NCBI GenBank assembly: GCA_036339735.1
Contig: JAYZAL010000064.1
Location: 32,001-96,000 of the forward strand
Direction: 5' to 3'
From: Candidatus Poribacteria bacterium
Lineage (GTDB): Bacteria; Poribacteria; WGA-4E; UBA9662
DNA length: 64,000 nucleotides
The notes under the pieces: model-generated
What the model was told of the DNA's origin: nothing
The model's database searches: none
The model's input: only the letters and a program-made list of their open reading frames with translations
Part shown: piece after piece, positions 7,383 to 31,892 of the stretch
Layout of the letters: each line of letters opens with the position of its first letter
How positions within the stretch are numbered: the first letter of the stretch is position 1
Translations under genes and position numbers: made by a program

Positions 7383-8258
7383 ATGGAAGTGCAACAAACA
7401 ATAAAAGCCACTCGATCTTGGAGTCAACGTCATCGATATCAAGGGAAGTCAGTTGGCTTTGTTCCAACCATGGGTGCCTTGCATCAAGGACATCTCAGTT
7501 TAGTTCGCCAAGCCCGAAAAGATAATGATTTTGTTGTAGTAAGCGTATTCGTTAACCCAATTCAATTTGCACCTAATGAAGATTTTGATAATTATCCCAG
7601 AAAATTTAGGCTAGACTTAGACTTACTCGAGAAAGAATGCGTTGATCTGGTTTTTGCACCTAGCAGTCAAGAAATGTACCCACAAGATGATAACCGTATG
7701 AACCAGACATGGTTGGACGTCGTTGGGCCAATTACTGAAGGACTATGCAGTACTAGTCGACCGACTTTTTTTCGTGGTGTAACAACTGTTGTGGCTAAAT
7801 TATTTAATATCGTTCAACCAAAACGTGCTTACTTTGGATGGAAAGATGCACAACAACTAGCAGCAATCCGACAAATGGTGAATGACTTGAACTTTGATCT
7901 AGAAGTAATCGGCTTGCCTATAGTACGAGAAGACGATGGTTTAGCTATGAGTTCACGAAACGTCTATTTAACAAAAGATGAACGCCAAGAGGCCAAAATG
8001 GTCTACCAATCCTTGGAACTAGCAAAATCCCAAATTCTACGAGGGGGGCAGTCTGTAAAAAAAATCACGGATGAGATGAAACTACTAGTGGAAGACTCGC
8101 CATTGATTCGAATTGACTATATTACAATTGTCTCTAGTCAAACATTCAGCCTAATCTCAGAACTTGAGCACGGACAAGATATCTTAATAGCAATAGCTGC
8201 TTATGTCGGAAACACCCGTTTAATTGATAATTTCCGACTAAAAGTTCCCCAGTTTTAA
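7383..8258 (+). CDS. panC: pantoate--beta-alanine ligase
   Basis: VPTMGALHQGH, SVFVNPIQF, FG.KDAQQ, GLAMSSRN, RLIDN. Confidence 0.97.
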   Translation: MEVQQTIKATRSWSQRHRYQGKSVGFVPTMGALHQGHLSLVRQARKDNDFVVVSVFVNPIQFAPNEDFDNYPRKFRLDLDLLEKECVDLVFAPSSQEMYPQDDNRMNQTWLDVVGPITEGLCSTSRPTFFRGVTTVVAKLFNIVQPKRAYFGWKDAQQLAAIRQMVNDLNFDLEVIGLPIVREDDGLAMSSRNVYLTKDERQEAKMVYQSLELAKSQILRGGQSVKKITDEMKLLVEDSPLIRIDYITIVSSQTFSLISELEHGQDILIAIAAYVGNTRLIDNFRLKVPQF

Positions 8259-9319: not shown

Positions 9320-9325
9320 GATTTT

Positions 9326-10069
9326 TTACCAACGGAACCTAATTTCTCCAAAGATACCATTTCCAGTTGTTAGATAGGATGTCTGAACCACCGAATCAGT
9401 ATCTTGGTCTTGGATTAAAAATAGAACAGCGCTTGTAGTTAAACTCAAAACCGAAGCACCAAGTAACAATCCAGTTTGCCTATCGAGTTGTTGTGTTTTT
9501 GATTTGAACTCATCGGCTTTTGTTTTTACTAAAGCTTGTTTGAACATTTTATATGTACTATCTGCTCGATGGTTTGAGTAATATGCAGCAATGCTCAATG
9601 CTCCACCAATAGATAATGCCGTCCAAGCAAAGGGATTTGATTGGCGACGGTATGGCTGATCGTAATCAGAAGAACCAGCTAAATCTGGCAAATCTTGATT
9701 TAGAATACTAATACCATCTTTGGTCTGAACAACCTCTTGAACGGATACTAGGTCTGCAAAGCGTACCATTTTCCCAGTATCTGTCTCCGTGATTCTCGTT
9801 ATAGCACTATGTTCATAAGACTCAAGGACCTCTAGGCGAGCTACAGGAGATAGCTGATGTTCAATAGATTCGTATGCATAGCAGATATCACCTTCCTGCA
9901 AGTCATAATCCTTTCCCATATCAATATAGACAAAGCTTCGATCAACTAGGAGAACGTATCCTTGGTCCCAACCATCGAGAGCCATAGCAACATCAGCGAT
10001 CATACCAGCGAATAACAAGCAATAGAAGAAAAATCTTAACTTTAAACTCATTCTTAGAACTCTATTCAC
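9326..10069 (-). CDS. exported/membrane hypothetical protein: FlgT-C-like N domain plus C-terminal hydrophobic hairpin
   Basis: Signal peptide; VYIDMGKDYDLQEGD motif; two hydrophobic segments near the C-terminus; ends in aromatic GEIRFRW. Confidence 0.5.
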   Translation of the reverse strand: MNRVLRMSLKLRFFFYCLLFAGMIADVAMALDGWDQGYVLLVDRSFVYIDMGKDYDLQEGDICYAYESIEHQLSPVARLEVLESYEHSAITRITETDTGKMVRFADLVSVQEVVQTKDGISILNQDLPDLAGSSDYDQPYRRQSNPFAWTALSIGGALSIAAYYSNHRADSTYKMFKQALVKTKADEFKSKTQQLDRQTGLLLGASVLSLTTSAVLFLIQDQDTDSVVQTSYLTTGNGIFGEIRFRW

Positions 10070-10075
10070 AAAGAT

Positions 10076-13000
10076 CTAGTTTTCAATTGGCCTAACACAG
10101 CGAAAACCAATACCGGGGTACCCTGATTCAGGGGAAGCTTTTTCTCGGTTTGTGAGTGAAGTCATGAACCCATCTTCATGTAAACTTATTCCTCCGCGAA
10201 CAGCTTTCAATCCAGTATGGTCAACAGGCCCCGTCGGGTTTGAAGATATACCACTTTTAGAGTAATAGGTAGCGTCATACCAGTCAGCGACCCATTCCCA
10301 AGCATTTCCACACATATTATATATATTGTTCCGAGTTTTTCCATCTGGATGACGGTCAATTGGAGCCAAACCTCTCCCCGTTTGGATATTTACCAAGCTC
10401 GTAACTATGCCATTCCAACGATTTCCCCAAGCCCATCTAGGCCGGGTTTTAATACCTGAAAAATTACCCAACGCAGCCCGTTCCCACTCAGCTTCAGTCG
10501 GCAATCTTTTTCCAACCCATTCTGCATAATCATTCGCATCTTTCCAACTAACGTTCACAACAGGGAATTTGCCCATTCCTTTTGGGTATTTTCGGCCATT
10601 CCAGTGACTTGGTGGCATGCGATTAGTCGCATCCACAAAATCTTTGTACTCTGCATTTGTTACCTCATATTGATCAATATAATATGCTGACAAATTGACT
10701 AACCTCTCAGGTTTTTCATCGGATTCCCCATTTTCATTTCCCATCATGAAAGGAATTGTAGTGGCTGGAACATAGACCATACTTAAAGGAGCGTCAAGGT
10801 CAATTACCTTTGTGACGATAGCACTTTCATTCCCAGCTCGATCCTTAAATTTAACGAAAACTTTCTTTGGGCCTGGAGTTGATTCAACTAACCAATTAAG
10901 GGTTGAAGTGTAAGATTCCCATTCATTAAACTCTTGAGTGTTAGAGACTGACATTTGATAAACACCACTAGCGTCAGTAACGGCAAACTCTAGCTTCAAT
11001 TGCGGAGACTTCGTTTTTCCCTTTCCCCCATTAATTTCGAATTTATGAACAAACGGAGGTTGTTGATCAATCACGAGGCTACGATTAACAAAAGTTGTCT
11101 GACCGACCAAAACAGTGATCGGGGAAACCCTAATTTCATCAGTTCCCGATCGGTGAATAGAATAATTTCGATCACTTTCTAGATCCGTGATAGACCAATG
11201 GTCTCCAGAGGTAATTGTTTCGACTCTCAAAGAGTTAGATAACTTTATATTATTTTTACGTAGAGCAAGAATAAAAGGTTCCGTGAGATGTTGGTGAATT
11301 TCAAATTCACGTGCTATCTCGTCTACATCTATGTCAATTGTTACAGGAGCTTCCTCGACCATATATTTACCCGTATCAATCTTTAGTTGGTACTCTCCGG
11401 CAGGAATATCTCGGATAGTGGTTGGTGTTAGGTAAGGTTTTAGTTGAACTTCGGCACGTCCAACCGAAAATTTCTCTGAAGCTGCTGGTGAAAAAATTAA
11501 CGATCGCATCTGCCGTGGCTGGAGGCGAATATTAGCTTTCCCGACTTCAATTTGAACTTCGATAGGAGGCTCTATGTCGATTTCCGTAACCTGATCCGTA
11601 ACCTCGGCTTTTTTTACGGTAAGTTCCTTTCTTTCCGATATTTCACCATTTTCACCCAACTGCTCTAAATACAGAGTGTCTCCCGGAAATACAGCCGTAC
11701 CTTGTTCCACTACTAATACTTGACCACCTTTGTTGATCTCTTCTAATACCGGTATTTTTGGACCAACCCGTTGTTCTACGTTTTTAATTCCAATGATTTT
11801 ATGATCAGATCGAAACGCCACTAAACCATCAGCTGTCCGATTCTGAAGCCAAACTTTGTCGCCAATTTCAAAAACACGAATCGTTTTGGGCACCATATGT
11901 GTATCTCCAGGTTCCACCCCTCGAATAAGTGGGATAGGATCAGCTACGAGTTTTTCTAATGCCGTAGAGTTATCGGTGAACTGTGGTACTATTTTGATTA
12001 CTGCATTTGAAGGATCCGACAAGATTGTAATACTACCTCTACCACGCTTTAAGGTTAGAGGGGGAAATTTGGTAACTTCGCCAGATTGTATGAGTGCAAG
12101 CTTTTGTTCTGGTAAGTAAAACGATTTTGAAACTGTAATCTTACTCAATCGAAAAACTTGAGCCATATTCGAAAAGTTTCTTCTGAGACTATCCTTAAGT
12201 ATGAGTCGAGTTTGCCTCTCACCGCGACTACTAGATACTAACTGAGGCTCCAAGACCTCAGCGATCTCACTAATTTTAATACGAAATATCTTACACTTTC
12301 CCGTTGAGTAAGTATTTTTTACAGGATATTTCAATGTGATTTTGTTTATTCTATCCGCTACTGATTCAATTTCTGGTAAAGATTCTTCTCTCGTGACTCC
12401 TTCTTCGATGCTAATTACATCTCCAGCTCCAAACTCTGATGTTGAAGAGACAAATAACTCTACATCCCCAGGTTGTAGATCCTTCAATAGACTAACGGAG
12501 ACACCTGTGTTGTCAATTTCCTGAACCAATATATGACTTTCTTTAGGAAAATCAGCGCGCCACCCGATCTTTAGGCTGTGGTAAACCGATACCTTTCCGT
12601 CGCTCATTAAATAACTGCTATTTAGTGGATTTTTTAGTATGATTTTATTTCCTAGTTCAGTGACTGACTCAACTATAGGCAACGGCTTTTCAATGAATGA
12701 ATTGACTCCTATCTCTTGCTTAATCGTAACAACATCTCCAACTTCGAACCCTATGATTGACTCAACGTATATTTCGTTTTCTCCGGAACGGACATCTTTT
12801 ACTAAATGAGTCTTTACGGCTTTAGCATCTTCAACCAAATTGGCTGGTTCAACAACTGGCACGGCGATTACCTGGCCTTTATTAGGAGGTTGTATACGAA
12901 ATACACGAGCCGTTTTTGGGTCACTGACCTCGCTCCTTTGCCCAACACCAAAACTATCTGCTAAAGCAGGCTGGACAAAGAGAGTTGGCATCAAATTAAG

Positions 13001-13390
13001 TACTCCTATTCGAATTACAGTGTGGTCAGAGTAAATTTGCATATTGTCCATTTCGTTCCCACTTTGAAGGATACGTACACGGTCTCCCACGGAAAATCCT
13101 TCAGTAGTTCGAACGGAAACTCGATCATCACCTTTGTCTGAAGGTCGAATTAGCGGGACAGGATCACCTAACATCGGAACCTCGTCCAAAAGTTGACGAC
13201 TGCGTATTGGCCGAGGTTGTTGTTTCTGTGCTCGCTTCAAATTTTCATCAATTTGAATTTGTGCATCTGGAGGGTCTACCTCTATATAAAGATACCCATA
13301 ACCGCTTGCGCGAAGTAACGACACAGGAGATAATACGCAAAGACCAATAATAAAAATAGAAATTATATTTTTCAAGTTCATAACACCCAA
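10076..13390 (-). CDS. large secreted multidomain protein: PEGA-like domains, five beta-repeat units, Ig-like domain, C-terminal FGE-sulfatase (SUMF1)-fold domain
   Basis: Signal peptide; GYLYIEVDPPDAQIQID and GSITILSDPSNA (PEGA-like); F.MG...DEKP, YEVTN, PVVNVSW.DA, RLPTEAEWE.AA, M.GNAWEW, GFRC (FGE fold). Confidence 0.8.
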   Translation of the reverse strand: MGVMNLKNIISIFIIGLCVLSPVSLLRASGYGYLYIEVDPPDAQIQIDENLKRAQKQQPRPIRSRQLLDEVPMLGDPVPLIRPSDKGDDRVSVRTTEGFSVGDRVRILQSGNEMDNMQIYSDHTVIRIGVLNLMPTLFVQPALADSFGVGQRSEVSDPKTARVFRIQPPNKGQVIAVPVVEPANLVEDAKAVKTHLVKDVRSGENEIYVESIIGFEVGDVVTIKQEIGVNSFIEKPLPIVESVTELGNKIILKNPLNSSYLMSDGKVSVYHSLKIGWRADFPKESHILVQEIDNTGVSVSLLKDLQPGDVELFVSSTSEFGAGDVISIEEGVTREESLPEIESVADRINKITLKYPVKNTYSTGKCKIFRIKISEIAEVLEPQLVSSSRGERQTRLILKDSLRRNFSNMAQVFRLSKITVSKSFYLPEQKLALIQSGEVTKFPPLTLKRGRGSITILSDPSNAVIKIVPQFTDNSTALEKLVADPIPLIRGVEPGDTHMVPKTIRVFEIGDKVWLQNRTADGLVAFRSDHKIIGIKNVEQRVGPKIPVLEEINKGGQVLVVEQGTAVFPGDTLYLEQLGENGEISERKELTVKKAEVTDQVTEIDIEPPIEVQIEVGKANIRLQPRQMRSLIFSPAASEKFSVGRAEVQLKPYLTPTTIRDIPAGEYQLKIDTGKYMVEEAPVTIDIDVDEIAREFEIHQHLTEPFILALRKNNIKLSNSLRVETITSGDHWSITDLESDRNYSIHRSGTDEIRVSPITVLVGQTTFVNRSLVIDQQPPFVHKFEINGGKGKTKSPQLKLEFAVTDASGVYQMSVSNTQEFNEWESYTSTLNWLVESTPGPKKVFVKFKDRAGNESAIVTKVIDLDAPLSMVYVPATTIPFMMGNENGESDEKPERLVNLSAYYIDQYEVTNAEYKDFVDATNRMPPSHWNGRKYPKGMGKFPVVNVSWKDANDYAEWVGKRLPTEAEWERAALGNFSGIKTRPRWAWGNRWNGIVTSLVNIQTGRGLAPIDRHPDGKTRNNIYNMCGNAWEWVADWYDATYYSKSGISSNPTGPVDHTGLKAVRGGISLHEDGFMTSLTNREKASPESGYPGIGFRCVRPIEN

Positions 13391-13394
13391 CTAA

Positions 13395-13742
13395 CTAAGC
13401 ACTCCTACTTTCCCACTTCCGATCTATCGAATAGACAAAAGCCAAAACCTCAGCTACTATTTGATAAAACTCTGGAGGGACTTCAGTTCCAACTTCAAGT
13501 TTGGCCAAGGCCTCCACTACGTCTGGCTGTTCGTAAATCGGTACGTCATGTTGCCTTGCTAATTCAACTATCCGATTAGCAATTTCGCCATCACCACCCG
13601 CGAGTATTTTGGGCGCTGAGTCAAATTCAGGTTGATAACGCAGAGCAATAGCCTTCTGTTTTTTTCTTAGTAATATATCCTTACTATTTTCTATTATTTC
13701 AACATCGCTGAGATTTTTTCGTTCGCTATGCACTGACATCAA
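13395..13742 (-). CDS. stand-alone FlhB cytoplasmic-domain-like protein (EscU/YscU/HrcU family, YlqH/FlhX type)
   Basis: KAIALRY...APKILAGG.G.IA.RI..LA..H.VP, EVPPEFYQIVAEVLAFVY; no TM domain and no NPTH. Confidence 0.9.
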   Translation of the reverse strand: MMSVHSERKNLSDVEIIENSKDILLRKKQKAIALRYQPEFDSAPKILAGGDGEIANRIVELARQHDVPIYEQPDVVEALAKLEVGTEVPPEFYQIVAEVLAFVYSIDRKWESRSA

Positions 13743-15051
13743 TTCGTCCCATGTTTACTGATATTTGTGAAACGTCAGTAATAACCTCTACTCCAGTTCT
13801 CTTCGAATCAATAACTTGAAATGCGACATCATCCAAATTGTAACGGATTGACTGCATACGTTCAAGGAGGTCAACTTTCTCATCAATAATGAAACTATTA
13901 TACTGTTGTTTCTCTGACATTATTAGACAGTTCATCTGTCTCTTTTGAACACGCAAATCGAACTTTAAGCTGCCAAGATTTTCTGTTTCAATTGACATTT
14001 CCAAGTGCATATTTTCCGTATCCAGTTTATCTTGGTCGTCTAAGTTATACCCCAAAACTTCCGCTGATAAATCCTTCTTATTTACACTGTATGGAATCTG
14101 AAAATAAACTTGGCTTCGTCCCGTAATCAATGGGTTCATAGCCAATTCTAACGCATCAATCTGACACAATACCGAATCGATGGCTTTATGCACTCGACTC
14201 AAGGATTCATCGGAGTACGGCATTTCTAATACGAGTTGGGTCTTGAATTGAATCAAATTGGCTTTTAGGCTTTTTCTCTGCAGGAATGCCTCTGAGGCAT
14301 TTGACCTTTGACCAGCTAAAAACAATTTTCGTTCGTATGACAACCCCAACAGGTTCACAGATTGAGAAATTTCTTCAGCTAAATTGTTTGAATTAGGGGC
14401 AATTGAACGCGTTGCTTCCAGAATCTGTCGATACAATTCGCTCTTACTACCAAAAGAATTAATCGAATCTTTAATTGAAGCCGTCAGTTCACTTCGTAAT
14501 AACCTAAATCTCTGGTGTAATTTGTCTTGCCGATAATAAAGATTTTTTAAAGCTCGAAACAGATGAGATTTAGGCGGAAAGTTTAACAACCAGCTAGTAA
14601 AGAGAAAGTTTGTACTGTAGCTCGTTCCTGATAGCGAATCAGCTTTTTGAGCATACTGAGCGAAATCAATCACGATACAAGGATCAATTGGAGTTTTATT
14701 CTGATACAGAATTTGAGCAAAATCGAGATGTCGCTGATTAGAAGGTAAACCAGCATCGTTAAGTAGAGATGTAATCTCAGAGTCAAATTTAGAGGGCATC
14801 GTACTTGTAGGAATAAAACTCATTCGTACTCCTCCTTTCAACGATATGACTTTTGCCTCAACTTCTTGACCTCGTCTGAGCCTAGATTTTATTTCAGTGA
14901 CTAACTTCTGTCCCTTAAAATTGATTAGGAATTGATTATTACCCAATACACGAACAACAATACCCTTTAAGATTTCGCCAGATTTTAATCCGGATTTAAA
15001 TGATGAAATCGACGGGTCTGTGACACGACCTAAAATTGGAGTCAATTTCAT
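13726..15051 (-). CDS. FliK-like protein (YlqG-type)
   Basis: N-terminal small beta domain (GEILKGIVV...FLINFKG); C-terminal YFQIP...IETENLGSLKFDL resembling the FliK-C fold; overlaps the FlhB-C-like gene. Confidence 0.6.
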   Translation of the reverse strand: MKLTPILGRVTDPSISSFKSGLKSGEILKGIVVRVLGNNQFLINFKGQKLVTEIKSRLRRGQEVEAKVISLKGGVRMSFIPTSTMPSKFDSEITSLLNDAGLPSNQRHLDFAQILYQNKTPIDPCIVIDFAQYAQKADSLSGTSYSTNFLFTSWLLNFPPKSHLFRALKNLYYRQDKLHQRFRLLRSELTASIKDSINSFGSKSELYRQILEATRSIAPNSNNLAEEISQSVNLLGLSYERKLFLAGQRSNASEAFLQRKSLKANLIQFKTQLVLEMPYSDESLSRVHKAIDSVLCQIDALELAMNPLITGRSQVYFQIPYSVNKKDLSAEVLGYNLDDQDKLDTENMHLEMSIETENLGSLKFDLRVQKRQMNCLIMSEKQQYNSFIIDEKVDLLERMQSIRYNLDDVAFQVIDSKRTGVEVITDVSQISVNMGRIDVSA

Positions 15052-18572: not shown

Positions 18573-21500
18573 CTATTTCAATATTACCATCTTTTTTAAA
18601 GATGTTTGGTGATCCGTTTGTAGCTCATAGAAGTAGACTCCACTCGCAACTTGTTCACCATTTGCGTTACGGCCATCCCAATATGCTGCAAATCCTTGGC
18701 TAGAATAATCTCCTGCAGGCATTATTCCCAAGTTCAATTCCTTAACTAAAATACCTGTCGCATCGTAAATCCGAATCGATACATGCGATTGCTGACTGAG
18801 CTTATAGGGTAACCATGTCTCAGGGTTGAACGGGTTTGGATAGTTCTGGGCTAGTTCAGTTTTCTGCGGCTTCTTTAAAGTCTCAATAGTTTGAACCCAT
18901 CCCCCTTCAGGGTGAGAGTAAATGTTACGGCCTCCATCCACCACTACTAAACGTTCTAGTTTAATGTCGCCATAACCTCCAGCTTTGCTGACAAAAGAGA
19001 AACTTGCCAAATCGGAAGTCCCAGAAGCATTACCATTCCTTCCAGCAATCATATTAGCTACCAAAATCCTGTTAAGACCATTTGATTCCTCAAAAGTACG
19101 ACTAATAAAGAATGTCTCGGCATTAGATGAATTACGTTCCAGAATTTGGCCTGCCTCTACCTTTTCGTCCATTAAATGCCACAGATCAGGATCGTAAGTC
19201 AGTTCGAACGCATAACCTTTTATACTGTCAACCTTAGCCATGACTTGAAGACTTATTGTTTCTCCCTCTTGAACAACCTGTGGCAAATTTGGCTTGATCA
19301 ATTGGAAGGTTTGCTCTACGATCGCAGGTGAAGCTGCTGGCGGCGGACCACCATCGCCAGTAGGTGGAACACCCAATCCCCCAAAGTCACTAACAATGAT
19401 GTCGTAGTCCACTAGGTTGATGTTACCATCGTCGTTCAAATCGGCATTATCATTGAATTGCTCATGCCCCTCTTGAGTCCCCCAAGCTTGCATAAACAAG
19501 TTCATGTCCCCTATGTTTATCCTGTTATCACCATCAATATCTCCACCAATTAAGTATTGATCCTGATCTTTCGAGTAAATGTCGATACCACGCAAATTAT
19601 CACCAGGAATCACTACTAAAGTGGAAGTATTAGCTTTGGGTTGGTATTGCCCACGCAAATAGGAATTTGCCTTGGCAACTAGCTCCCAAGTACCTCTTGG
19701 TACCCCTTGAATAGTATATGACCCGTCAGCTTTAGTTGTTACTTGAATCCCAGGTTTAGCTTCATCTTCATCATTTGCAATACTATCAATTTCTAAATCT
19801 TCAGTTGTACCTGGTTTACGCAAAGAGAATGTAACTTCAGCTGAATGATCTCGACGTCCTTCCAATTTAACTTTTCCAAAAATAGCTGCATGAGGCAAAA
19901 TCTGAATAGCTAGAGCCGGCGTATTGGCTATCGGTGAGACATTCTCCCGAGTATCTGTTAAAGGATCAATTATAGCAATTGAAGTCCCTCGATTACTAGC
20001 AGCCTCATCGAAATCAAATGAAACTGTAGTATTGATCGGGCGTGTACCCTCGTGTTCTTTCACCTTAAAAGTTAAGGTTGTCAATGTTCGATAGATACCA
20101 GTCCTAACAGCTTTAGAATTATTTTTAATAACTATACTGTAATCTAACTGAAACCCACTAATACCGTTGGCCATACTATCCTCAATAGTATCATCGTGGG
20201 TGTCGTTTTCTAGAACCTCTTGCTGGTTTTCTTTAGCATCATCTAGATCAAAAATTAACGATGATTTGTCGACCCCATCATCTGAAGAGGACAGTTGGCG
20301 AAATGGTAAAGCCGAATCCTGAATTTCCAGGTACCGGTCATCAAAAGTCATGTAAATGCTTGCCCCTTTGATCTTAACATCCGGACTTCTTAGTTGAACA
20401 CGGACCTGAAACTCTTCGCCTGGTCCTGCCGCAATAGATGCTGGGCGTAAGCGGATATTCACCTTACGAATGGTTACACTACCGGCAGCTTTACTATATG
20501 CTTCATTACCACTACCATCCGTCGCTTTCGCATAAATAAAATAAGAACCGTTTAAACCAAATTCATTCGCAGATTCGAAAGATTCAATATCCCAGGAGTA
20601 AGACCCTAAGCCGGCTGAAGTCTGGTAATTAGTGGTCAAAACACCCGACTGGACTGTATTATCACTCACTTCACCTATGATTATCCTAGCGTCATCCTCC
20701 AATGTATGATAATACAAGTTAATTTTTATATCATTGTTATCGATATCTTCTGTATGCCATGAAACAGTATATTCATCTATCGCACGAGAGCCCTGAAGAA
20801 TCGGTGAAATTAGCTTAATCGTTGGCGGATATTTGACAATTAGCCGCCCCCTACTGCGCAACGCCTTTTCTTTAATTTCTGATTCTTCTTTAGCTTTCGT
20901 TGGGTCTTTATCGCTGATTATGGCATAGATATAGTAGCCAGAAAGGCTTTCTTTCACATTTTGATTACGAAAGTTCCACTTGTACTGGCCTAAATCCTCA
21001 TCTTCATCTTCACTCAAGTTGCCGGCAATAAACTCAGTGTTTTCCCGTAATGTTACCAAATCTAAGGTCGAGAGATTCTTGTCGCTATAATAAAGACTGA
21101 TCCTAGCGTCCCCTAGATTTTTTTTGTCAGTCCACTGAACTATAAAAGAGCCATCTGTAATATCAACATCGTTCTGAGGTGTTAGATTGCTCAGGAAAAC
21201 ATCATGCCTCACCTCAACTTGCCCCGGAGCTCGAACCAGTTCAGAACTTATGTCAGTGTCTTCTATAATGCCGTATATCGTATAGAGTCCTTCCGGAATA
21301 TTACGTGTTTCCCAGATAATATTGGTTTCTTCTGCTCCAACAGTCAATTCCACTGGTATGGAATCCGAAGGATCGATACTTGGTATGGCTGGAACTAAAA
21401 CGCTTGTGTCACTCTCTGTTGCAACACGGGCTTTCAAGCCAGCAATGTCCTCAGGCCCGAAATCGTCTTTTCCAGAATAAAACAACGTAATTTTTGCCTT

Positions 21501-22703
21501 CGGGTTAGGTCCGCTAGCACTGAACCCAACTTGACCTTGATCATCAAAAATCACGGCAGGTACTTTGAATGGCGAGAGTATTTTTAGTACAGGCTTTTCT
21601 GGCAATTTAGTAATAACAGGACCGGACGAACTGAAGTCTTCTGCAGGACCTGCAGGAACAGATTTACTGAAAGTAAAACTCGTTCCCTGCTGAAGAATAA
21701 CGCCGATCGTATCACCTTCCCTAGCCTTACCTTCGGTCTTTGTTAAAGCTGCCAAAAGAAAAGTGTTTTGCGTTGAGCCTTCAGGTTCCGCCCCAAGTAA
21801 TGGTTGATCAAGTTCAAATGACAGGCTTATAAGATCTGTTTTAATTTCCGCAATTGGTGCACCATCGTTTTCATCTAGGACACGCAAAGGTTCAATATCT
21901 TTGTAAAGATAAAGTGTCTCAACCGACTCACGGACGAAAGGTGGAGCCAATTGAAGAGTCATCGACATCATATTTTGGGCTATATCCGACCTGACTTCAA
22001 TTGCAGATAAAGCAACTCTCTTATTAAAGGAAACTGGCTTCCCATCATTGAGAGCCGTTACTATGATTGATTCGATCCCCTTAACCATTGGCCCATCAAT
22101 CCGTCTCTGATCTTCCATCGCGGAAACCCTATCGGCCTCACGAAAGAAAAAAGCATGACTGCTAAGATAAAGAATTACCTGATTACCTCTCGTGGTTTTC
22201 CCGGGATTAAGAACGACGACTAAAAGGAAATTAGTGGTTGTTTCTTCCCCAAGTTTACCTACAGGTAACCCAAGCCCTGCTTTTTGCAAGTTTAGCGGGG
22301 CTCGGCTATTGATATCAAGAACCTCTGAGGTAATCCACTCAGCGCTATCTGGCTTTCCATCTTTGTTGACGTCTTCATACAGTTCGATCTTGGCAATTGA
22401 AGTGTCCTCCACCCCTTTATTCTGTTCTTCCAATTTAAGATTACTTACTTTCAGGAAAAACCATTCATCTTGCCCTCCATCATCTGTAATAGCTATATTT
22501 GCAACTACAGCTTGCAAGTCACCAGGATCAACCAATTCATCCGAAGTAACTGGTTGGACATTGATGTTAGTGACAAGGCCCCAAGACAAATAGGGCGAAC
22601 AGAAAACACCCACAATACAAAGTATTAAACCAGCGTAAATAGAACTATATGTTCGGTAGAGTAAAGAACAGCTAATAGACACTGCTCGGTCAAACTTCCT
22701 CAT
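18573..22703 (-). CDS. 1376-aa secreted scaffold-like protein: Ig-like repeats, cohesin, X/carboxypeptidase-regulatory-like, dockerin, cohesin, T9SS-like/FlgD-Ig C-terminal domain
   Basis: Duplicated Ca-loop GDIDGDNRINIGD / ADLNDDGNINLVD; two cohesin-pattern segments; C-terminal LAQNYPNPFNPETW...WDGRN..GE.VASGVYFY...KMVILK. Confidence 0.8.
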   Translation of the reverse strand: MRKFDRAVSISCSLLYRTYSSIYAGLILCIVGVFCSPYLSWGLVTNINVQPVTSDELVDPGDLQAVVANIAITDDGGQDEWFFLKVSNLKLEEQNKGVEDTSIAKIELYEDVNKDGKPDSAEWITSEVLDINSRAPLNLQKAGLGLPVGKLGEETTTNFLLVVVLNPGKTTRGNQVILYLSSHAFFFREADRVSAMEDQRRIDGPMVKGIESIIVTALNDGKPVSFNKRVALSAIEVRSDIAQNMMSMTLQLAPPFVRESVETLYLYKDIEPLRVLDENDGAPIAEIKTDLISLSFELDQPLLGAEPEGSTQNTFLLAALTKTEGKAREGDTIGVILQQGTSFTFSKSVPAGPAEDFSSSGPVITKLPEKPVLKILSPFKVPAVIFDDQGQVGFSASGPNPKAKITLFYSGKDDFGPEDIAGLKARVATESDTSVLVPAIPSIDPSDSIPVELTVGAEETNIIWETRNIPEGLYTIYGIIEDTDISSELVRAPGQVEVRHDVFLSNLTPQNDVDITDGSFIVQWTDKKNLGDARISLYYSDKNLSTLDLVTLRENTEFIAGNLSEDEDEDLGQYKWNFRNQNVKESLSGYYIYAIISDKDPTKAKEESEIKEKALRSRGRLIVKYPPTIKLISPILQGSRAIDEYTVSWHTEDIDNNDIKINLYYHTLEDDARIIIGEVSDNTVQSGVLTTNYQTSAGLGSYSWDIESFESANEFGLNGSYFIYAKATDGSGNEAYSKAAGSVTIRKVNIRLRPASIAAGPGEEFQVRVQLRSPDVKIKGASIYMTFDDRYLEIQDSALPFRQLSSSDDGVDKSSLIFDLDDAKENQQEVLENDTHDDTIEDSMANGISGFQLDYSIVIKNNSKAVRTGIYRTLTTLTFKVKEHEGTRPINTTVSFDFDEAASNRGTSIAIIDPLTDTRENVSPIANTPALAIQILPHAAIFGKVKLEGRRDHSAEVTFSLRKPGTTEDLEIDSIANDEDEAKPGIQVTTKADGSYTIQGVPRGTWELVAKANSYLRGQYQPKANTSTLVVIPGDNLRGIDIYSKDQDQYLIGGDIDGDNRINIGDMNLFMQAWGTQEGHEQFNDNADLNDDGNINLVDYDIIVSDFGGLGVPPTGDGGPPPAASPAIVEQTFQLIKPNLPQVVQEGETISLQVMAKVDSIKGYAFELTYDPDLWHLMDEKVEAGQILERNSSNAETFFISRTFEESNGLNRILVANMIAGRNGNASGTSDLASFSFVSKAGGYGDIKLERLVVVDGGRNIYSHPEGGWVQTIETLKKPQKTELAQNYPNPFNPETWLPYKLSQQSHVSIRIYDATGILVKELNLGIMPAGDYSSQGFAAYWDGRNANGEQVASGVYFYELQTDHQTSLKKMVILK

Positions 22704-22744: not shown

Positions 22745-24184
22745 CTACATAAAATTAAATAGACTTGGTGACATAGTACGCGCACCGGTTTGAAGCATAG
22801 CTGTCAACATGTTAAGTTGTATCTGATACTCAACAACTGCGTCTGAATAATCAACTTGCTCTACAGTTTCAAGAAACTGTTCGAGCGCTAAATTTTTATC
22901 CGACAATCGATTACGTAATGTGTCAGCTCGGTTAAGTTTTCCCCCAACCTGAGTTTGTAAAATTGTTATATGCTCAATAGAACTCTCCATAGCATTCGAA
23001 AGTTCTTCAATAGCACCTTTCCCTTGATTTCTAACAGCGGCTTGCAAGTCGACTAATTGATCAAAAACTCTTTGAAAAGCTACATCCCCGGGCATCCCGA
23101 CTTCGATAAAAGAGCTTTTTCCAACTCGCTCTAAATGAACCCCTTCATCTCCTTGATAACTAATACCGACTATATCCCCGATACCAACACTGGTATGCTT
23201 TATAACCCTTGCATCTAATCCTGCATCGTAAGTGTTCTGCAGAGGCGTTTTCAATAAGACAACAGCTTCATTCTTTGTTAGATCCGTCTGGACAGTCTCA
23301 ACCAAAGCTATTTCCGAAACCCCTCCCATACCTTGCACAACAATTTGATCTCCTGCTTCCAAAGCTCCTTGAACTCTGTCCAATGGAAGGACCACCGCTC
23401 TTCGTTCGGCACTTTTTAACAATGGAACAGCCACTGTGGTATCTTCGCTTTCTATATCGGCTTCCTCACCATCCACTTTAGGTTTTGTCAAAACAGCTGG
23501 TTGATTCGATTCAACTGAGTAATTATTTGATAAATCTGAATTGAATTGTATCACAACGCTGTCGCCTGACGACTGAACCGACGAGACCGTAACATATTCT
23601 TGATTTTCACCCTGTTTCAAAACTAATTCATCCCCTACGGAGAACGAATCGGCATATTCTAAACCAATCTCTACTTTATCATGAGAGACGTTTCTAGCAA
23701 ATTTAAATTCTCTTGTGGCAACTGTAGACTGGCTCCGCTCAGCCGTAAAAGCTGTACCTTCCGTTCTATTACCAGCAAACAGAGGTTTACCCTCAAAAGT
23801 GGTATTCACAGTTTCCAATGTCGATTCTACTAACTGCTTTAATTCTTCTGCATAAAACTTATAATCCGAAGGATGATTAGTATCGGACAGGGCCATCTGC
23901 GCTAAATCACGAGCTCTACCTAAAATACTCTGTACATCCTGATACACCATATTTTCTACGCTAAGCTGAGCTTCTGTGTGATTCACGTTTGAAACGAATT
24001 GCTCGTTCTGGGAAATATGTCCCCTAATATCCAGAATCTTGTTGGCTAAAGCTGGGTCATCTGATGGTTTCTGAATTCTTAAACCGGTGGAGACCCGCAT
24101 TTGAGCCTTCTCTAGGTTTTCCAACGCAGTATTAATCTTTCTTTTTAGATTGTCAGCTTGTCCTGCACTTGTAACACGAGCCAT
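22745..24184 (-). CDS. flgL: flagellar hook-associated protein 3 with large central insertion
   Basis: Flagellin-like N-terminus STGLRIQKPSDDP, LFAG; C-terminus VDYSDAVVE...SPSLFNFM; follows flgK. Confidence 0.9.
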   Translation of the reverse strand: MARVTSAGQADNLKRKINTALENLEKAQMRVSTGLRIQKPSDDPALANKILDIRGHISQNEQFVSNVNHTEAQLSVENMVYQDVQSILGRARDLAQMALSDTNHPSDYKFYAEELKQLVESTLETVNTTFEGKPLFAGNRTEGTAFTAERSQSTVATREFKFARNVSHDKVEIGLEYADSFSVGDELVLKQGENQEYVTVSSVQSSGDSVVIQFNSDLSNNYSVESNQPAVLTKPKVDGEEADIESEDTTVAVPLLKSAERRAVVLPLDRVQGALEAGDQIVVQGMGGVSEIALVETVQTDLTKNEAVVLLKTPLQNTYDAGLDARVIKHTSVGIGDIVGISYQGDEGVHLERVGKSSFIEVGMPGDVAFQRVFDQLVDLQAAVRNQGKGAIEELSNAMESSIEHITILQTQVGGKLNRADTLRNRLSDKNLALEQFLETVEQVDYSDAVVEYQIQLNMLTAMLQTGARTMSPSLFNFM

Positions 24185-24216: not shown

Positions 24217-25728
24217 TTATCTTGGTGCCATTCGATTAATAACAGTATCAGTCATTTGGTCAATTGTTGACATCATCCGAGCCGCAGCTTCGAAAATACT
24301 TTGATATTGCATCATGGTAACGAGTTCTTCATCTAAAGAAACTCCAGAAACACTTTGCCACCTAGCCTCAAGTTGATCCCGTACCAGTTGAGTTGTATTA
24401 ACTCGGCGCTCGTTTTCATCTGACAACCCACCCAAAGAAGCGACAGAAGTGTTATAAAAATCTGTAAAATTCAAAGTTCCTTCTTCAAAAAACAAAGTAT
24501 TCTGTAGAGATACCATTTCCAAAGCATTCTCATTCTCTCCCCTAGCTGTTCCTTTTGCCGTAGCAATCAGATTGAGGTTCCCTGCAACTTCTGGTGCCAT
24601 TTTGATGGTAGCTGCAATTCTAGATGGTGGTTGAGTTTCAGGAGGAGCTGTTTCGCCAGTACCATAAGAAACTGTTCCATTAGCATCCGGCAAATTAAAC
24701 TGAAATAGGGACTGACCGTTCGACCCTGTTAACCCACGACCAGACTGATGTACACGATTAATTTGACGAACAAAAGTGTATGCAAAACGGTCTAAGTTTT
24801 TGAGTGTCTGAGGAATTATTTCATCCTGCATCCGTAACAAACCAGCGATTGCACCACCACGGATTGTTACATCTCGGGTTTGACCTGGCTGTTTCAGTAC
24901 GACGTCAACCAATTGCTCTGAGATTGCAGTCGTTGTGTCCATCGCACCATCCAAAGGTTTCTTTGGAATTACTTTCAGTTCATTAACTTCGGTTTCTTGT
25001 ATAAGCGGATTACCATCTAACATCACCATGACGGTACCATTATCTTGCTCTATAACACGAACGTCAACCAATTGAGCTATTTCACCTACTAATTCGTCTC
25101 TCAAATCCAGTAAATTTGCGGCTTCTGTCGGCTCTGCCACACTGGAAATATCTTCATGTATAACTGATAATTGACGCAATAGAGAATTTACACGATCAAC
25201 ACGGATCTTTATATCTTCGGCAAACGTTGGCTGCAATTCTTCTAAGTCTGCATAAAACCCACGCAAATCTCCGGCAACAGCTTGAGCCTTGGTCCTGACC
25301 TCTGCTCTGAAAGCTGAATCAGTAGGATCTTGAGCCAAAGTCTCCCAAGCGTTAAAAAAATCAGAAACGGTACTATTGAAATTATCCTCCGATAAAGAAT
25401 TAAAGATAATCTCAATCTGTTGGATGCCTTTTTGCTCCTCTTCTAACTGATTCAACCTCTGATCAGCATACCTAATCTGAGTTTCAATAAACACATCACG
25501 CTTGCGGTCTAGCCTGGCCAAAGCACTCCCAGTACCAAGATGTATCGTTCTGCCAAGACCAGACAAACCACGGTGCTCTATACTCTCCGTGGTTGAAATA
25601 ATTGGAACCTGACGATGATAAGCCCTATTGCCCGCGTTAGATACGTTTTGCTGATTTGTCTGAATCGCAGCCTGATGCGTTTGCATCGACCGTCGACTCA
25701 TTTCGAGAATACTAAAAAGAGTGGACAT
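24217..25728 (-). CDS. flgK: flagellar hook-associated protein 1
   Basis: NVSNA...YHRQ, NLLDLRDELV, SGVSLDEELVTMMQYQ..F.AAAR. Confidence 0.95.
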   Translation of the reverse strand: MSTLFSILEMSRRSMQTHQAAIQTNQQNVSNAGNRAYHRQVPIISTTESIEHRGLSGLGRTIHLGTGSALARLDRKRDVFIETQIRYADQRLNQLEEEQKGIQQIEIIFNSLSEDNFNSTVSDFFNAWETLAQDPTDSAFRAEVRTKAQAVAGDLRGFYADLEELQPTFAEDIKIRVDRVNSLLRQLSVIHEDISSVAEPTEAANLLDLRDELVGEIAQLVDVRVIEQDNGTVMVMLDGNPLIQETEVNELKVIPKKPLDGAMDTTTAISEQLVDVVLKQPGQTRDVTIRGGAIAGLLRMQDEIIPQTLKNLDRFAYTFVRQINRVHQSGRGLTGSNGQSLFQFNLPDANGTVSYGTGETAPPETQPPSRIAATIKMAPEVAGNLNLIATAKGTARGENENALEMVSLQNTLFFEEGTLNFTDFYNTSVASLGGLSDENERRVNTTQLVRDQLEARWQSVSGVSLDEELVTMMQYQSIFEAAARMMSTIDQMTDTVINRMAPR

Positions 25729-25746: not shown

Positions 25747-26256
25747 TCAAATCCTATGATCGAACATGCCTTTACCTTGTGGGCTACGGACATGACCATC
25801 ATCTTGATAAGTATCTCCTGGTTCATCAATTCGCATTACTTCATCAACCAGGAAAGACGCGTATTCTTGCTCACTTTCTAATAGACTTTTGTTGGTATCA
25901 TTAATAAACTCGAACTCTCTTTTTACTCGTTCTACACGCTGAAAAAGCTTTTGATAATCCGATTTTAGAGGTTCGTCTGCCAATTTGGTAATCGTTGTCG
26001 CGTTTAGTGATTGATCAACTAAACCTTCTTCCGTCGCCAACTTAGTCAGAAGAACATCACGAGTAATTTCAATCTTTTGGATCTTTTGGATAGTTGATTC
26101 CTCATTCTTAATCAATTCTTCCAATTCTTTAATTTCACGCTTTACTAACAGATCTCGCTCGGCATACAAAATCTTCAAGAGTTCATAGTACTTATCAAGT
26201 TCATAGCGCAACAGTTCAAACAAATCAGAAAGCAATGCTTGCAATATAACTACCAC
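25747..26256 (-). CDS. flgN: FlgN export chaperone
   Basis: 169-aa helical protein directly upstream of flgK; INDTNKSLL, TYQDDG, MFDHRI C-terminus. Confidence 0.8.
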   Translation of the reverse strand: MVVILQALLSDLFELLRYELDKYYELLKILYAERDLLVKREIKELEELIKNEESTIQKIQKIEITRDVLLTKLATEEGLVDQSLNATTITKLADEPLKSDYQKLFQRVERVKREFEFINDTNKSLLESEQEYASFLVDEVMRIDEPGDTYQDDGHVRSPQGKGMFDHRI

Positions 26257-27133: not shown

Positions 27134-28699
27134 TTACCGCTTGAGACCTAGTGCTTCCTGAAGAATGCTATCTGAAGTTGTAATAATCCGTGAGTTAGCT
27201 TGAAAACCCCTTTCAGTTGTTATTAGGTCAGTAAATTCTTCAGTCAAGTCAACATTAGACATCTCTAGTGCTCCCGATGAGATTTCACCCATGTTACGAC
27301 CTCCAGCAGCAATATACGATGGAGCGCCAGAACTAGGAGACACTGCAAACATACTATCTTGAATCGTATTCAATCCTTCTGGGTTAGGTATGTCAGCCAA
27401 AGCGACTTGGGCAATTGAGCGACTTATACCATTAGAGAAAATCCCATTGATAGTTCCGTCAGCGCCAATACTAAATGAGGTTAACGTCCCAGGCCCCACA
27501 CCGTCTTGCCGAGATGCCATAGCATCTGAAGTGGAAGCAAACTGAGTCAAATTACCAAACTGAAGGTCAAAGGTTAAATCTTTTCCATCACCTTTGGGCT
27601 TTATAGTAACCGTTGGCTCAGCAGGCGTAACAAACTCAAACGCGCCAGAATCTCCATTGAAACGTACTAAGCCGCTACCACTAACACCATCAGCCTCAAC
27701 ATCTGTAGCACCGGTTGCAGCCCAAGTCCAAGTGTTATCAGTGTCTTTCTGCTTTGTAAATGTTAACTCTACATCGTGGCGTTGACCAACACCATCGTAT
27801 ACACCAATTGTACTCTTATGTACTGCGGACACGACGTTGATTGAAGCAATCCCACTATTAAGATTTTCACCAAAACTGAGAGTTACACCATTACCATTAG
27901 GATCCTGAAGTGTTACTGCCTGATCCGCACCAGGTATTGCTACGTCAGGCCCACCATCGAGAGAGGCTACCAAATTACCACTTTCAGGGTCAGCAGGATC
28001 TCTTTTCACAATAATCCTGTGCGCTCCAGTCGACAACTGACTGTCGGCAGGTAAATCATAAGTCTTAATTCCAGTACCACCACTTTCCGTCAACTCGGCT
28101 TGTCCCGCTCGAGTATCTAAATTTCCCATATACTCAACAAATCCGGTTGATTTAGCGATTGATTTCGAGAAAGGAAAGTTAATCTTCCCAACGGGCTTAC
28201 TACTATCAACTAACCCTGTTGCACTATCAGCGTTCCAGCCCATGACTCTATAACCATTTGGCCTGTACATCATATCACCGTTAGTGTCAATTCCAAAGTT
28301 TCCTGCTCTTGTAAAAACTTTGACAGAATTCGAAGACGCTGCCACTCCTTTACTGTTTGGATCTACTTGAGCCGCGTCGGGGGCTCCCAGAACAAACATC
28401 CCCTTACCACGAACCATCAAATCCGTCGCAACGTCAGTGATTTGCGGACTCCCATTTTTGTGATTAACGTCAATGGAACTTATCTGCACGCCTGCGCCCA
28501 CCTGATTAGGATTAGTGGCACCTCTTTGACCTGTAGCTGCAACTCCACCTTTCAGAGTTTGAGCAAATGTTTCTCTAAAAATGACCCGAGATTTTTTAAA
28601 TCCAGTTGTGTTTATATTAGCTAGATTATTTCCAATAATATTAACCTTAGCCTGATGGGTCCGTAACCCTGTCAGCCCTGAATATAATGCACCAATCAT
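27134..28699 (-). CDS. flgE: flagellar hook protein
   Basis: GNNLANINTTGFK, FTRAGNF, VYDGVG..H, LEMSNVDLTEEF...RGFQANSR. Confidence 0.95.
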   Translation of the reverse strand: MIGALYSGLTGLRTHQAKVNIIGNNLANINTTGFKKSRVIFRETFAQTLKGGVAATGQRGATNPNQVGAGVQISSIDVNHKNGSPQITDVATDLMVRGKGMFVLGAPDAAQVDPNSKGVAASSNSVKVFTRAGNFGIDTNGDMMYRPNGYRVMGWNADSATGLVDSSKPVGKINFPFSKSIAKSTGFVEYMGNLDTRAGQAELTESGGTGIKTYDLPADSQLSTGAHRIIVKRDPADPESGNLVASLDGGPDVAIPGADQAVTLQDPNGNGVTLSFGENLNSGIASINVVSAVHKSTIGVYDGVGQRHDVELTFTKQKDTDNTWTWAATGATDVEADGVSGSGLVRFNGDSGAFEFVTPAEPTVTIKPKGDGKDLTFDLQFGNLTQFASTSDAMASRQDGVGPGTLTSFSIGADGTINGIFSNGISRSIAQVALADIPNPEGLNTIQDSMFAVSPSSGAPSYIAAGGRNMGEISSGALEMSNVDLTEEFTDLITTERGFQANSRIITTSDSILQEALGLKR

Positions 28700-30038: not shown

Positions 30039-31892
30039 TTAAACTAGATGGTCTATCCCAGTGGAAGAAAAGTTTATATGTTGGGCTCCCATTTGCTCGT
30101 CGCTCCTCGAGCTACCTGATAACTCATACGAAACGTCATTGTTTGGTGTACCTGCTCCTTGAAATCGACGATACCCCAAATCTTGGTCCCAATCACTAAA
30201 GTTTTGCCACCCACCTTGTTGTTCCGAATTATTAGACATTACCTGAAAGTTATCGATTTGAATTCCATGTTCCGATAGCGCGTTTCTTAATTGTGCCAAG
30301 TTACCTCTAACAATCTCACTTACCATCCCATTTCTCGCCTGAACTTGTGCTGACAATACACTATCTTCAAAAACTAAACGAATATGAAGCCTACCGAGGG
30401 AAGGAGGCTCCAAGTCGATAGTCGCCTGTTGAAACCCACGCCCTAACTGGGGCTGTAGCTTGTCTGCGATTTGGATGATCACTTGATCAGAACTAACAAT
30501 CTGAGTTGGTAGGGTCGCGTCGCCCTGAGCTCCACTTAGCACATTTGCTAAACTGACAGTATCCATACGCTGAATCTGATTCCAACTCAATACCATATTT
30601 TGTGTGCCTTGAGCTGTTTCAGTATATCCTTGACTAATCTCGAATTGAGGTAATTGGAAACCTCTATACTGAGACTGTAACCCTCGCTGGTTAAGGGTCT
30701 GATGATTTGGTGAATTCTGCTGCTGTAGATTGAACTGTAACTGGCGTAACTGGTTCAAACTTTCGTTGCCAGGTTCAAACGCTTTACCTGTCAACATATT
30801 TGAAAAATTAGATTGAGGCATATTTTCAGCTGGTGGCAAAACAATCACTCGTTCTACTGGCACTTCCAACTGACTAGCCAAATCCTCTACATTACTAACA
30901 TCACCAAAGGGTAATAGTTCAGTCTCAATCAATTTTTTTTCGTTAGTGTCGAATACACCCACCACACCTTTTGAGTCATTCGATTCAGTCGAAACCTGGA
31001 CTTGGCTCTCGAAATCCTGCCCATCCTCAAATCCCAAGGCCATAGGTGTTTGTGCTACCTGAACGCCTGAATCTTCAGTATGAGTCGAACTAAATCCATG
31101 GGGGCCCAACTTAGAATCAAACTCATTTATATCGTCATGATTAATCCCATCAGCAGAAGTTCCAGATTCGGCCGAAACCGACATAACCTCTTGCTCTAAC
31201 AACAGATCTGCCATCGACAGTTCACCTGACTGCAGATTACTTTCTAAATCTCCCTGCCTGCCTCTAGCGCTTTCAGCGAAACGTGCAACAATCTGCTCTG
31301 CCAACTGATCTAGTTCTGTCTCACCGAGTGCTTCGATATTAAGATCTGAAAGCAACTTTGGCAAATTTATATTCGAAGTAGCTACAGAGGCCTCTGAACC
31401 ATCCAATGAACTCAACCCCTGATTACCGGCCTTATCATCGAAAAGCGTTTTTTGTCCGCCTGAAAGTTGCTGGATCAACATTTCAGCCAATCCTAACTGG
31501 CCGGTTTTTGCAATTTCCATTGCATACTTTTCGTCTAGCATGCCGTTGAAAATTTTCATCGTGGTACTGTTTTCGCCTAAAAAATCAGTCTCAGTAGACG
31601 ATTGCCGCATAGTTGAAAGTAATTGAGCAACAAAAACGGATTCAAACTCTTGAGCAGCAGTTCGAAGCTTACTCTGTTCAGGAGTTAAAGGCCCCTGAGA
31701 TGATAATGACAATGAAGAGGCTCGGAGCGAATCCGCCTGTTGCTGGCCTCCACTTTTGTCATTGCCCATCATTGCTGATATTTTAGCCCCTAGCTTTTGA
31801 GCTTTAGACTTGTATGTATCATAGTCAGTCGACGCAGCGCCCATTGAGCCTTTACTGGATTCTTGTTGCAATAAGACAGGGAAAATATCCAT
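30039..31892 (-). CDS. FlgJ rod-binding domain fused to FliK hook-length control protein
   Basis: N-part KLRTAAQEFESVFVAQLL..MR...MLDEKYA...LGLAEMLIQQL (FlgJ-N); C-part ATIDLEPPSLGRLHIRL...NLAQLRNALSEHGI (FliK-C); single open frame between flgI and flgD. Confidence 0.85.
   Translation of the reverse strand: MDIFPVLLQQESSKGSMGAASTDYDTYKSKAQKLGAKISAMMGNDKSGGQQQADSLRASSLSLSSQGPLTPEQSKLRTAAQEFESVFVAQLLSTMRQSSTETDFLGENSTTMKIFNGMLDEKYAMEIAKTGQLGLAEMLIQQLSGGQKTLFDDKAGNQGLSSLDGSEASVATSNINLPKLLSDLNIEALGETELDQLAEQIVARFAESARGRQGDLESNLQSGELSMADLLLEQEVMSVSAESGTSADGINHDDINEFDSKLGPHGFSSTHTEDSGVQVAQTPMALGFEDGQDFESQVQVSTESNDSKGVVGVFDTNEKKLIETELLPFGDVSNVEDLASQLEVPVERVIVLPPAENMPQSNFSNMLTGKAFEPGNESLNQLRQLQFNLQQQNSPNHQTLNQRGLQSQYRGFQLPQFEISQGYTETAQGTQNMVLSWNQIQRMDTVSLANVLSGAQGDATLPTQIVSSDQVIIQIADKLQPQLGRGFQQATIDLEPPSLGRLHIRLVFEDSVLSAQVQARNGMVSEIVRGNLAQLRNALSEHGIQIDNFQVMSNNSEQQGGWQNFSDWDQDLGYRRFQGAGTPNNDVSYELSGSSRSDEQMGAQHINFSSTGIDHLV

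Follow-up and report, generated by a model that had tools for sequence, protein, structure and literature searches.

The stretch of DNA analysed here, referred to as the window, comprises 64,000 nucleotides from Candidatus Poribacteria, a free-living marine host placed via related loci. On its minus strand lies a single flagellar gene string, in which flgL encodes a hook-associated protein 3 (FlgL) that carries two tandem modules, L1 and L2, of about 75 residues each. The analysis reveals that these modules belong to one domain family, that they have the predicted fold of a small beta-barrel, that they occupy the outer-domain (D2) position of FlgL, and that they are specific to this lineage and held by purifying selection. 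A 1104-aa protein encoded 9.4 kb downstream of flgL contains further members of the family, and an earlier note on this DNA had taken the shared module as a sign that the two proteins might dock onto each other. On balance, we lean towards a different explanation, in which the modules of FlgL would form a lineage-specific outer collar of barrels on the hook-filament junction with a structural role.

Two barrel modules at the outer-domain position of FlgL

The identity of FlgL was established by its match to TIGR02550 (178.4 bits, cut-off 127.2, residues 3-479 covered) and to Pfam Flagellin_N (3.9e-18, residues 10-141). Pfam Flagellin_C was not found in the window FlgL, and its homologue P0026 matches that profile at 1.4e-5. 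The gene is immediately preceded by flgN (25747-26256) and flgK (24217-25728), an order that is kept in all four related loci. Three solved FlgLs (9go6_L, 5yti_A and 5ziy_A) align to the window protein. Because the Salmonella FlgL 9go6_L covers residues 24-147 and 385-477 only, residues 148-384 constitute the variable region between the two halves of domain D1, of which the conserved stretch 332-384 probably still belongs to D1. Judged from these alignments, the two units occupy the D2 position as an insertion between the N- and C-terminal D1 halves, which is where FlgL, like the flagellins, bears variable domains that face outward. The distal layer of the solved junction consists of eleven FlgL subunits with outward-facing D2 domains, the Campylobacter FlgL having a "bulky D2" (PMC12221982). 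Bacillus FlgL has no D2, and the D2 of Xanthomonas FlgL is an FlgK-like beta-sandwich that "decorates" the ring and for which a reinforcement of inter-FlgL contacts has been proposed (PMC6155364).

The strings quoted from FlgL in the earlier note were found in L1 at residues 162-222 and in L2 at residues 255-319, and the interval it named, 23200-23710, corresponds to residues 159-328. Modelling of residues 156-335 with AlphaFold2, using a 58-row alignment, gave a mean predicted local distance difference test (pLDDT) score of 89.0, with values below 50 in the inter-unit linker only (model residues 85-90). L1 scored 79-95 over most of its length, then 84 and 53 at its C-terminal end, and L2 scored 94-98. 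Both units are predicted with an identical order of elements, namely a strand, a short helix and then four or five strands (for L1, E-H-E-E-E-E). The linker between them is acidic and floppy and varies among homologues, nine residues being deleted in P0007 and P0008 and the segment being shorter in P0026 and P0035. Ratios of non-synonymous to synonymous substitution rates (dN/dS) were 0.046-0.10 for L1 and 0.018-0.023 for L2, as compared with 0.020-0.027 for the D0/D1 core and 0.38-0.49 for the linker, and both units are thus under strong purifying selection and are not drifting. An antisense open reading frame (ORF) of 90 aa with a TTG start lies inside the insert region (23209-23481, plus strand); the strong purifying selection in the FlgL frame argues that it is not the coding frame.

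Both units are present in all FlgLs of the lineage examined here, that is, in the window, in four of four related loci and in seven protein clusters spanning 43-99% identity, and hence in the FlgL of all five Poribacteria genomes (window and four loci). The related loci L001, L003 and L004 come from Poribacteria metagenome-assembled genomes, and FlgL identity to the window is 94% for L001, 88% for L002 and 43-44% for L003 and L004. A fifth locus, L005 (Veillonellaceae, 29% identity, N-terminus only), proved irrelevant and was left out of all counts. None of the seven nearest other FlgLs (286-408 aa) contained the module. Free-living "Pelagiporibacteria" have been recognised as a group, and no statement on their flagella was found in the available sections of the source (PMC8546597).

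The wider family was delineated by searching 1.84 billion representatives with a profile of four units from the two window proteins at E<=1e-3, which returned 107 protein clusters, two of them the Poribacteria families' own representatives. A Pfam scan covered 97 of the 105 other clusters, the eight very long ones being left out. No Pfam domain was assigned to 43 of the 97 at the thresholds used, while 19 carry glycosidase domains (GH2, GH3, GH20, GH35, GH53, melibiase, rhamnosidase and arabinofuranosidase) and 12 are phage-tail or contractile-injection proteins (five sheath, two baseplate-J, one tube, one Tail_P2_I, one core protein of an extracellular contractile injection system (eCIS), one S74 fibre and one weak gp18 domain III). 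Three are flagellar axial proteins, namely a FliD of 1207 aa (P0099) and two FlgLs belonging to the same lineage; one is a shorter relative of the 1104-aa protein (P0029, with FGE and PEGA); peptidases, SecDF, beta-helix and other proteins make up the remainder. The FliD P0099 holds two copies of the module (residues 266-339 and 481-551) together with a galactose-binding-like domain. The earlier note had pointed to a likeness to domains of phage tail-sheath and baseplate proteins, and the five sheath, two baseplate-J and one tube protein bear this out, as does a match of the sequence profile of the FlgL insert family to a solved tail-tube insert (9n71_B, E 0.005).

Among solved structures, the closest relatives of the module are found in Klebsiella phage depolymerases. 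Sequence profile A5, made of the FlgL insert and its relatives, matches residues 406-506 of the K1 depolymerase 9k4a_A at E 3.9e-5. With the insert model, Foldseek searches of the PDB likewise returned such depolymerases as the best solved matches (phage P560 depolymerase 7vul_A, 8.9e-5), the K1 lyase 7w1c_B aligning over 95 columns at a root-mean-square deviation (rmsd) of 3.6 A and 24% identity; the phage Chi tail tip was also matched. In BFVD, 30 predicted viral structures matched at E<=1e-3, among them proteins of the tail fibre, of tail assembly and of the sheath. Pfam returned only sub-threshold PilW_C (0.014) and PCB_OB (0.065) for the FlgL insert, the ESM Atlas gave no usable match for the FlgL part, and no FlgK or FlgL D2 structure figured among the 50 PDB matches that Foldseek listed for the insert model. 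By its predicted fold, the module can be counted among the known small insertion barrels, with a short helix and with its closest likeness in the K1 lyase Rider domain. The family of such rider or insertion domains is widespread and decorates surfaces exposed on phage tail sheaths, tubes, baseplates and fibres, on capsule depolymerases and on many secreted glycosidases. Literature searches yielded no description of this module as an FlgL outer domain, which is not proof of absence.

Relationship to the repeats of the 1104-aa protein

The strings quoted by the earlier note from the 1104-aa protein were also found to be present, and its count of five similar units could be upheld in part (Table 1): B1, B2 and B3 are clear, B4 is a half unit and B5 is borderline. 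In B4, the seed hidden Markov model (HMM) reached an iE of 0.09 and covered profile positions 2-34 only, so that this unit is tied in via B1, and B5 showed no significant match to the L units or to B2. Searches of Pfam and of the PDB with the units of this protein alone (four units for Pfam, a B-only profile of four sequences for the PDB) returned nothing significant. For part of the homologue P0009, the ESM Atlas gave only leads below 0.9, consisting of hypothetical proteins, one viral cluster and a head-fibre cluster.

Table 1. Features of FlgL and of the 1104-aa protein, with residues of the respective protein and positions in the window (iE, independent E-value)
Feature	Residues	Position	Strand	Evidence
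flgL, hook-associated protein 3	479 aa	22745..24184	-	TIGR02550, Flagellin_N, alignments to solved FlgLs
FlgL unit L1, small beta-barrel module	158-234	23483..23713	-	HMM envelopes, B-seeded profile, AlphaFold2, dN/dS
Acidic inter-unit linker	235-250	23435..23482	-	pLDDT, deletions, dN/dS
FlgL unit L2, second beta-barrel module	251-331	23192..23434	-	HMM envelopes, B-seeded profile, AlphaFold2, dN/dS
1104-aa protein: leader, module repeats, PEGA-like pieces, C-terminal FGE-sulfatase-like domain	1104 aa	10076..13390	-	
Unit B1	79-145	12956..13156	-	itB profile iE 3.3e-7; L-seeded profile 5e-3
Unit B2	192-274	12569..12817	-	L-seeded profile iE 6.5e-5; B2-B3 z 17.3
Unit B3	297-373	12272..12502	-	L-seeded profile iE 2.8e-7
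Unit B4, N-terminal half only	485-547	11750..11938	-	B1-B4 z 12.7; hhalign 95%
Unit B5, borderline	549-612	11555..11746	-	hhalign B1-B5 80.5%, B4-B5 68%
FGE-sulfatase-like C-terminal domain	880-1100	10091..10753	-	PF03781 6e-42

The similarity between the FlgL units and these repeats, which the earlier note had asserted, withstood direct comparison. BLASTP aligned FlgL residues 162-322 with residues 196-364 of the 1104-aa protein at 47 identities in 177 columns (27%, E=4e-5, composition-adjusted), and in unit-by-unit shuffles of L1 and L2 against B2 and B3 the z scores were 4.2-6.1, the observed score being attained in 0-4 of 500 shuffles. Among the 198 six-frame ORFs of at least 60 aa in the window, the four-unit HMM identified these two proteins only, the next best standing at E 0.38. 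These observations were further strengthened by a profile seeded with the L units and iterated on the family members of the four-unit search with all relatives of the 1104-aa protein withheld, which recovered that protein at a full E-value of 5.3e-19, and by the mirror B-seeded profile, which recovered FlgL at 2.5e-17 (L1 1.6e-10, L2 3.3e-5), against a best reversed decoy of 0.047; the iteration set had been gathered with a profile of both proteins' units and is therefore enriched for instances resembling both. With a profile of the FlgL family only, matches to the B units reach 1e-8 to 1e-5. On the strength of their sequences, L and B units thus form one domain family, with a direct similarity that is weak but real. 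That beta-rich segments resemble each other by chance would accord with the weakness of shallow comparisons (hhalign 0.6-43% for L-B pairs; two-sequence HMMs at E 0.036 and 0.012), and is an exceedingly improbable account in view of the BLASTP, iterated-profile and FlgL-only values.

Whether the two sets are specially related is a separate matter, and here the claim that both proteins carry the same module in any specific sense did not hold. BLAST among 460 extracted module instances placed unrelated proteins as the best non-FlgL matches of L1 and L2, that of L1 being the FliD P0099; the first unit of the 1104-aa protein came at about rank 19 for L2 and was absent from the top 22 for L1. With the FlgL-family-only profile, B3 and B2 of the window ranked 32 and 68 of 440 non-FlgL instances, the best unit of the 1104-aa family ranking 12, and with a profile of the 1104-aa family only, the FlgL units ranked 101 to 307 of 443. 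The BLAST neighbour lists and these ranks reject the notion that L and B units are nearest relatives. B2 and B3 are closest to each other, and L1 and L2 are as distant from each other as from the B units. A transferred two-unit cassette, with L1 corresponding to B2 and L2 to B3, was rejected because of this mutual kinship of B2 and B3. It is unlikely that a domain was transferred or duplicated within the operon in a Poribacteria ancestor and that later change erased the signal, leaving specific kinship and no joint function: the tandem L1-L2 does align collinearly with the tandem B2-B3 and the co-occurrence is as old as the split at 43% identity, but B2 and B3 score far higher against each other than against L1 or L2, the pairing of L1 with B2 and L2 with B3 is lacking, and better scores are reached by dozens of instances in unrelated proteins. 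The most likely reading of these sequence relationships is that the sharing reflects promiscuous re-use of a module, and not a specific relation between FlgL and a partner. The three to five family modules that stand among PEGA-like pieces in the 1104-aa protein would then be one more case of such re-use in the exported proteins of the lineage.

Homotypic docking, as the earlier note had proposed, would have the FlgL modules bind those of the 1104-aa protein and make that protein a physical partner of the junction. Several observations are compatible with it: both genes share a conserved operon, as seen in the window and in four of four related loci; their products are the sole module carriers among the 198 ORFs of the window; quasi-homotypic contacts between D2 domains have been suggested for FlgL and FlgK (PMC6155364); and the operon contains a second domain-sharing pair, FlgE and a 354-aa protein (described below). 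The units are not mutually closest relatives, however, and there is a problem of compartments. The flagellar type III system exports FlgL out of the cell. The 1104-aa protein has only a Sec-type leader, with no signal for the type IX secretion system (T9SS) or for flagellar export recognised in it, so that a periplasmic location is expected, and a role associated with the envelope is suggested by its FGE/GldK-like and PEGA parts. We found no support for docking and regard it as very unlikely. A complex prediction for FlgL residues 156-335 with residues 192-373 of the 1104-aa protein gave no answer (score 0.00, mark 0.32) and counts neither way on binding.

Several further features of the 1104-aa protein were noted. 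It is putatively secreted, on the evidence of an N-terminal hydrophobic segment judged by eye, and translation probably begins at the ATG of residue 4, which is the start site of three homologues. An identity as GldK/PorK was not supported, TIGR03525 reaching 74 bits against a cut-off of 350 and over the FGE-like domain only; the leader cysteine, a criterion for a GldK/PorK lipoprotein, is not conserved in homologues. PEGA was detected in one partial Pfam match (profile positions 25-56 at residues 655-686, E 0.008). By eye, PEGA-like domains appear to be split (residues 30-50, 449-470 and 651-690), with the module repeats inserted after the first strand.

A proposed structural collar compared with a possible sugar-binding surface

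If the units project from the D2 position as in solved junctions, eleven FlgL subunits would display 22 barrels as a collar outside the hook-filament junction. These barrels would most likely have a structural role, stiffening or shielding the junction by contacts made laterally. This role is suggested by analogy with the Rider domain of the K1 lyase and with the proposals made for FlgL D2.

Rider, from the K1 lyase of Klebsiella phage NTUH-K2044-K1-1 (PF24149; 7W1C, 9K4A), is beta-barrel-like, with two three-stranded sheets and a short helix; it stabilises the trimer via contacts with neighbours and also takes part in polysaccharide binding (PMC8822698). It is inserted into and projects from its host domain, as the FlgL units are predicted to do, and those units too are modelled as small barrels with a short helix; two members of the module family reach the PF24149 cut-off (P0019 at 34.1 bits, P0090 at 28.0 bits). 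Unlike Rider, the FlgL modules are in tandem, sit on a flagellar axial protein and not on a beta-helix, have no known sugar site and have no PF24149 match. The D2 domains of Xanthomonas FlgL (5ZIZ) and of Campylobacter FlgL resemble the units in being outer accessories on the helical D1 of an 11-subunit layer (PMC6155364, PMC12221982); the Xanthomonas D2 is one eight-stranded FlgK-like beta-sandwich, whereas the window FlgL has two small barrels of an unrelated family. The barrel-bearing outer domain is thus a new form of the known variability of FlgL D2. Phage and contractile tails offer members of the same sequence family, in sheath (P0030, P0037, P0054, P0056 and P0068), tube (P0084), baseplate-J (P0072 and P0079) and eCIS (P0021) proteins, which like FlgL assemble into helical or ring polymers and bear the module on their outer side, though the host scaffolds differ. 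The I-domain of the phage P22 coat protein is a reported structural homologue of Rider that is inserted and aids folding and assembly (PMC8822698). With domain II of EF-Tu and aIF2-gamma the likeness is at the level of the fold and includes tandem barrels (Foldseek E 3e-4 to 2e-3), but there is no sequence relationship, the rmsd over both barrels is 15-17 A and the function is unrelated.

The most probable alternative is that the modules bind a ligand, most likely a glycan, so that the junction and the 1104-aa protein would be sticky for polysaccharide of marine particles or of the cell's own surface layer. The 19 of 97 scanned members with glycosidase domains speak for it, as do the participation of Rider in both carbohydrate sites of the K1 lyase (PMC8822698) and the galactose-binding-like domain in the module-bearing FliD P0099. 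Conversely, A5 and A6 are without invariant columns, holding just an F-x-x-G-D core that is typical of the fold, and contain no conserved binding residues; the sugar of the K1 lyase is mostly held by the beta-helix, and the paper stresses stabilisation (PMC8822698); and eleven FlgL copies per flagellum make a poor adhesin. We consider glycan binding unlikely.

A number of points weigh against the collar. Its structural role is drawn by analogy, and the abundance of the module on glycosidases and depolymerases fits sugar binding equally well. Promiscuity, for its part, is by itself insufficient to account for two carriers in one operon in five of five genomes. A model of full-length FlgL, built with six close homologues, reached a mean pLDDT of only 47.8, and the insert could not be placed on D1 in it; the mutual orientation of the L1 and L2 barrels in the insert model is of low confidence (predicted TM-score 0.52). 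The link to Rider is also incomplete: PF24149 gave no match at E<=10 for the FlgL insert or for four units of the 1104-aa protein, and the B-only four-sequence profile had no significant PDB match, the Rider structure included. Finally, EF-Tu and aIF2-gamma domains II-III match the insert model about as well as the depolymerases do (Foldseek E 3e-4 upwards), which marks the fold as a small barrel of a common type.

FlgL outer domains are variable and few have been described, their role in reinforcing the junction being a proposal. The finding by itself reveals no new mechanism. It links the decoration of flagellar and of phage-tail polymers through one domain family, and the compact, well-predicted unit (pLDDT 89) offers a test case for stiffening of helical assemblies versus sugar binding. 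It also draws attention to a conserved flagellar operon of unusual length, from a phylum that is uncultured.

The flagellar gene string and its neighbours

The flagellar string runs from about 35.5 kb down to 8.3 kb, and the coordinates below are on the minus strand. Its upstream part comprises a flgF-like gene, flgA, flgH, flgI, a fusion of the FlgJ rod-binding domain with FliK, flgD and rod genes, and continues with flgE, a flgG-like gene, flgN, flgK and flgL. Nine genes follow flgL, encoding a 1376-aa protein with a T9SS C-terminal sorting domain and dockerin, an SLT transglycosylase, a 589-aa protein of unknown function, a TPR protein, a FliK-like protein, a protein consisting of the FlhB C-terminal domain only, and the 1104-aa, 247-aa and 354-aa proteins. 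The remainder of the window (39-64 kb and 0-8 kb) contains metabolic or housekeeping genes.

Gene order from flgE to the 1104-aa gene is identical in four of four related loci, down to 43% FlgL identity, and this is good evidence for the downstream block moving together with the flagellar genes. In each of these 21-kb loci, FlgL and the 1104-aa protein, whose N-terminus is visible at the locus end, are again the sole carriers of the module. The earlier note had regarded the domain sharing as independent evidence that the downstream genes belong to the flagellar system; the sharing is weak evidence for that conclusion, for which the synteny, together with the FliK-like and FlhB-like genes lying between, is the better basis.

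An all-versus-all comparison of 24 operon proteins revealed one further non-paralogous match, between FlgE residues 208-300 (27800-28078) and residues 130-231 (8627-8932) of the leader-bearing 354-aa protein encoded by the last gene of the operon (35% identity, E 2e-14). The FlgE segment is conserved in each of the five FlgEs, that of the window and those of the four related loci. Two axial proteins, FlgL and FlgE, thus each have an outer-region domain in common with a leader-bearing protein of the downstream block. A bolder reading, to which we assign little probability, is that the conserved block of nine non-canonical genes builds an accessory structure around hook and junction, such as a collar or a sheath base, in which like would pair with like, the barrels of the 1104-aa protein with those of FlgL and the 354-aa protein with FlgE 208-300.

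Other observations concern individual genes of the string. The 1376-aa protein (18573-22703), directly after flgL and with a dockerin repeat beside its T9SS sorting domain, is kept in four of four related loci at 51-96% identity; a T9SS cargo within a flagellar operon is unusual. The FliK-like gene of the downstream block (441 aa) is the second such gene in the string and is followed by the FlhB C-terminal-domain-only gene of 115 aa, the two together spanning 13395-15051; the product of the FlhB-like gene matches TIGR00789 at 103 bits, under the cut-off of 117. The FlgJ-FliK fusion upstream (617 aa, 30039-31892) is additional to this second FliK-like gene. The 247-aa and 354-aa proteins (8255-10069) each begin with a leader and a short FlgT_C-like motif, the sub-threshold FlgT_C hit in the 354-aa protein (22.7 bits versus 27) being the sole Pfam match of the pair. 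Just upstream of the flagellar string, a 957-aa protein (36117-38990) combines PD40 repeats with PA, M28 peptidase and PDZ domains.

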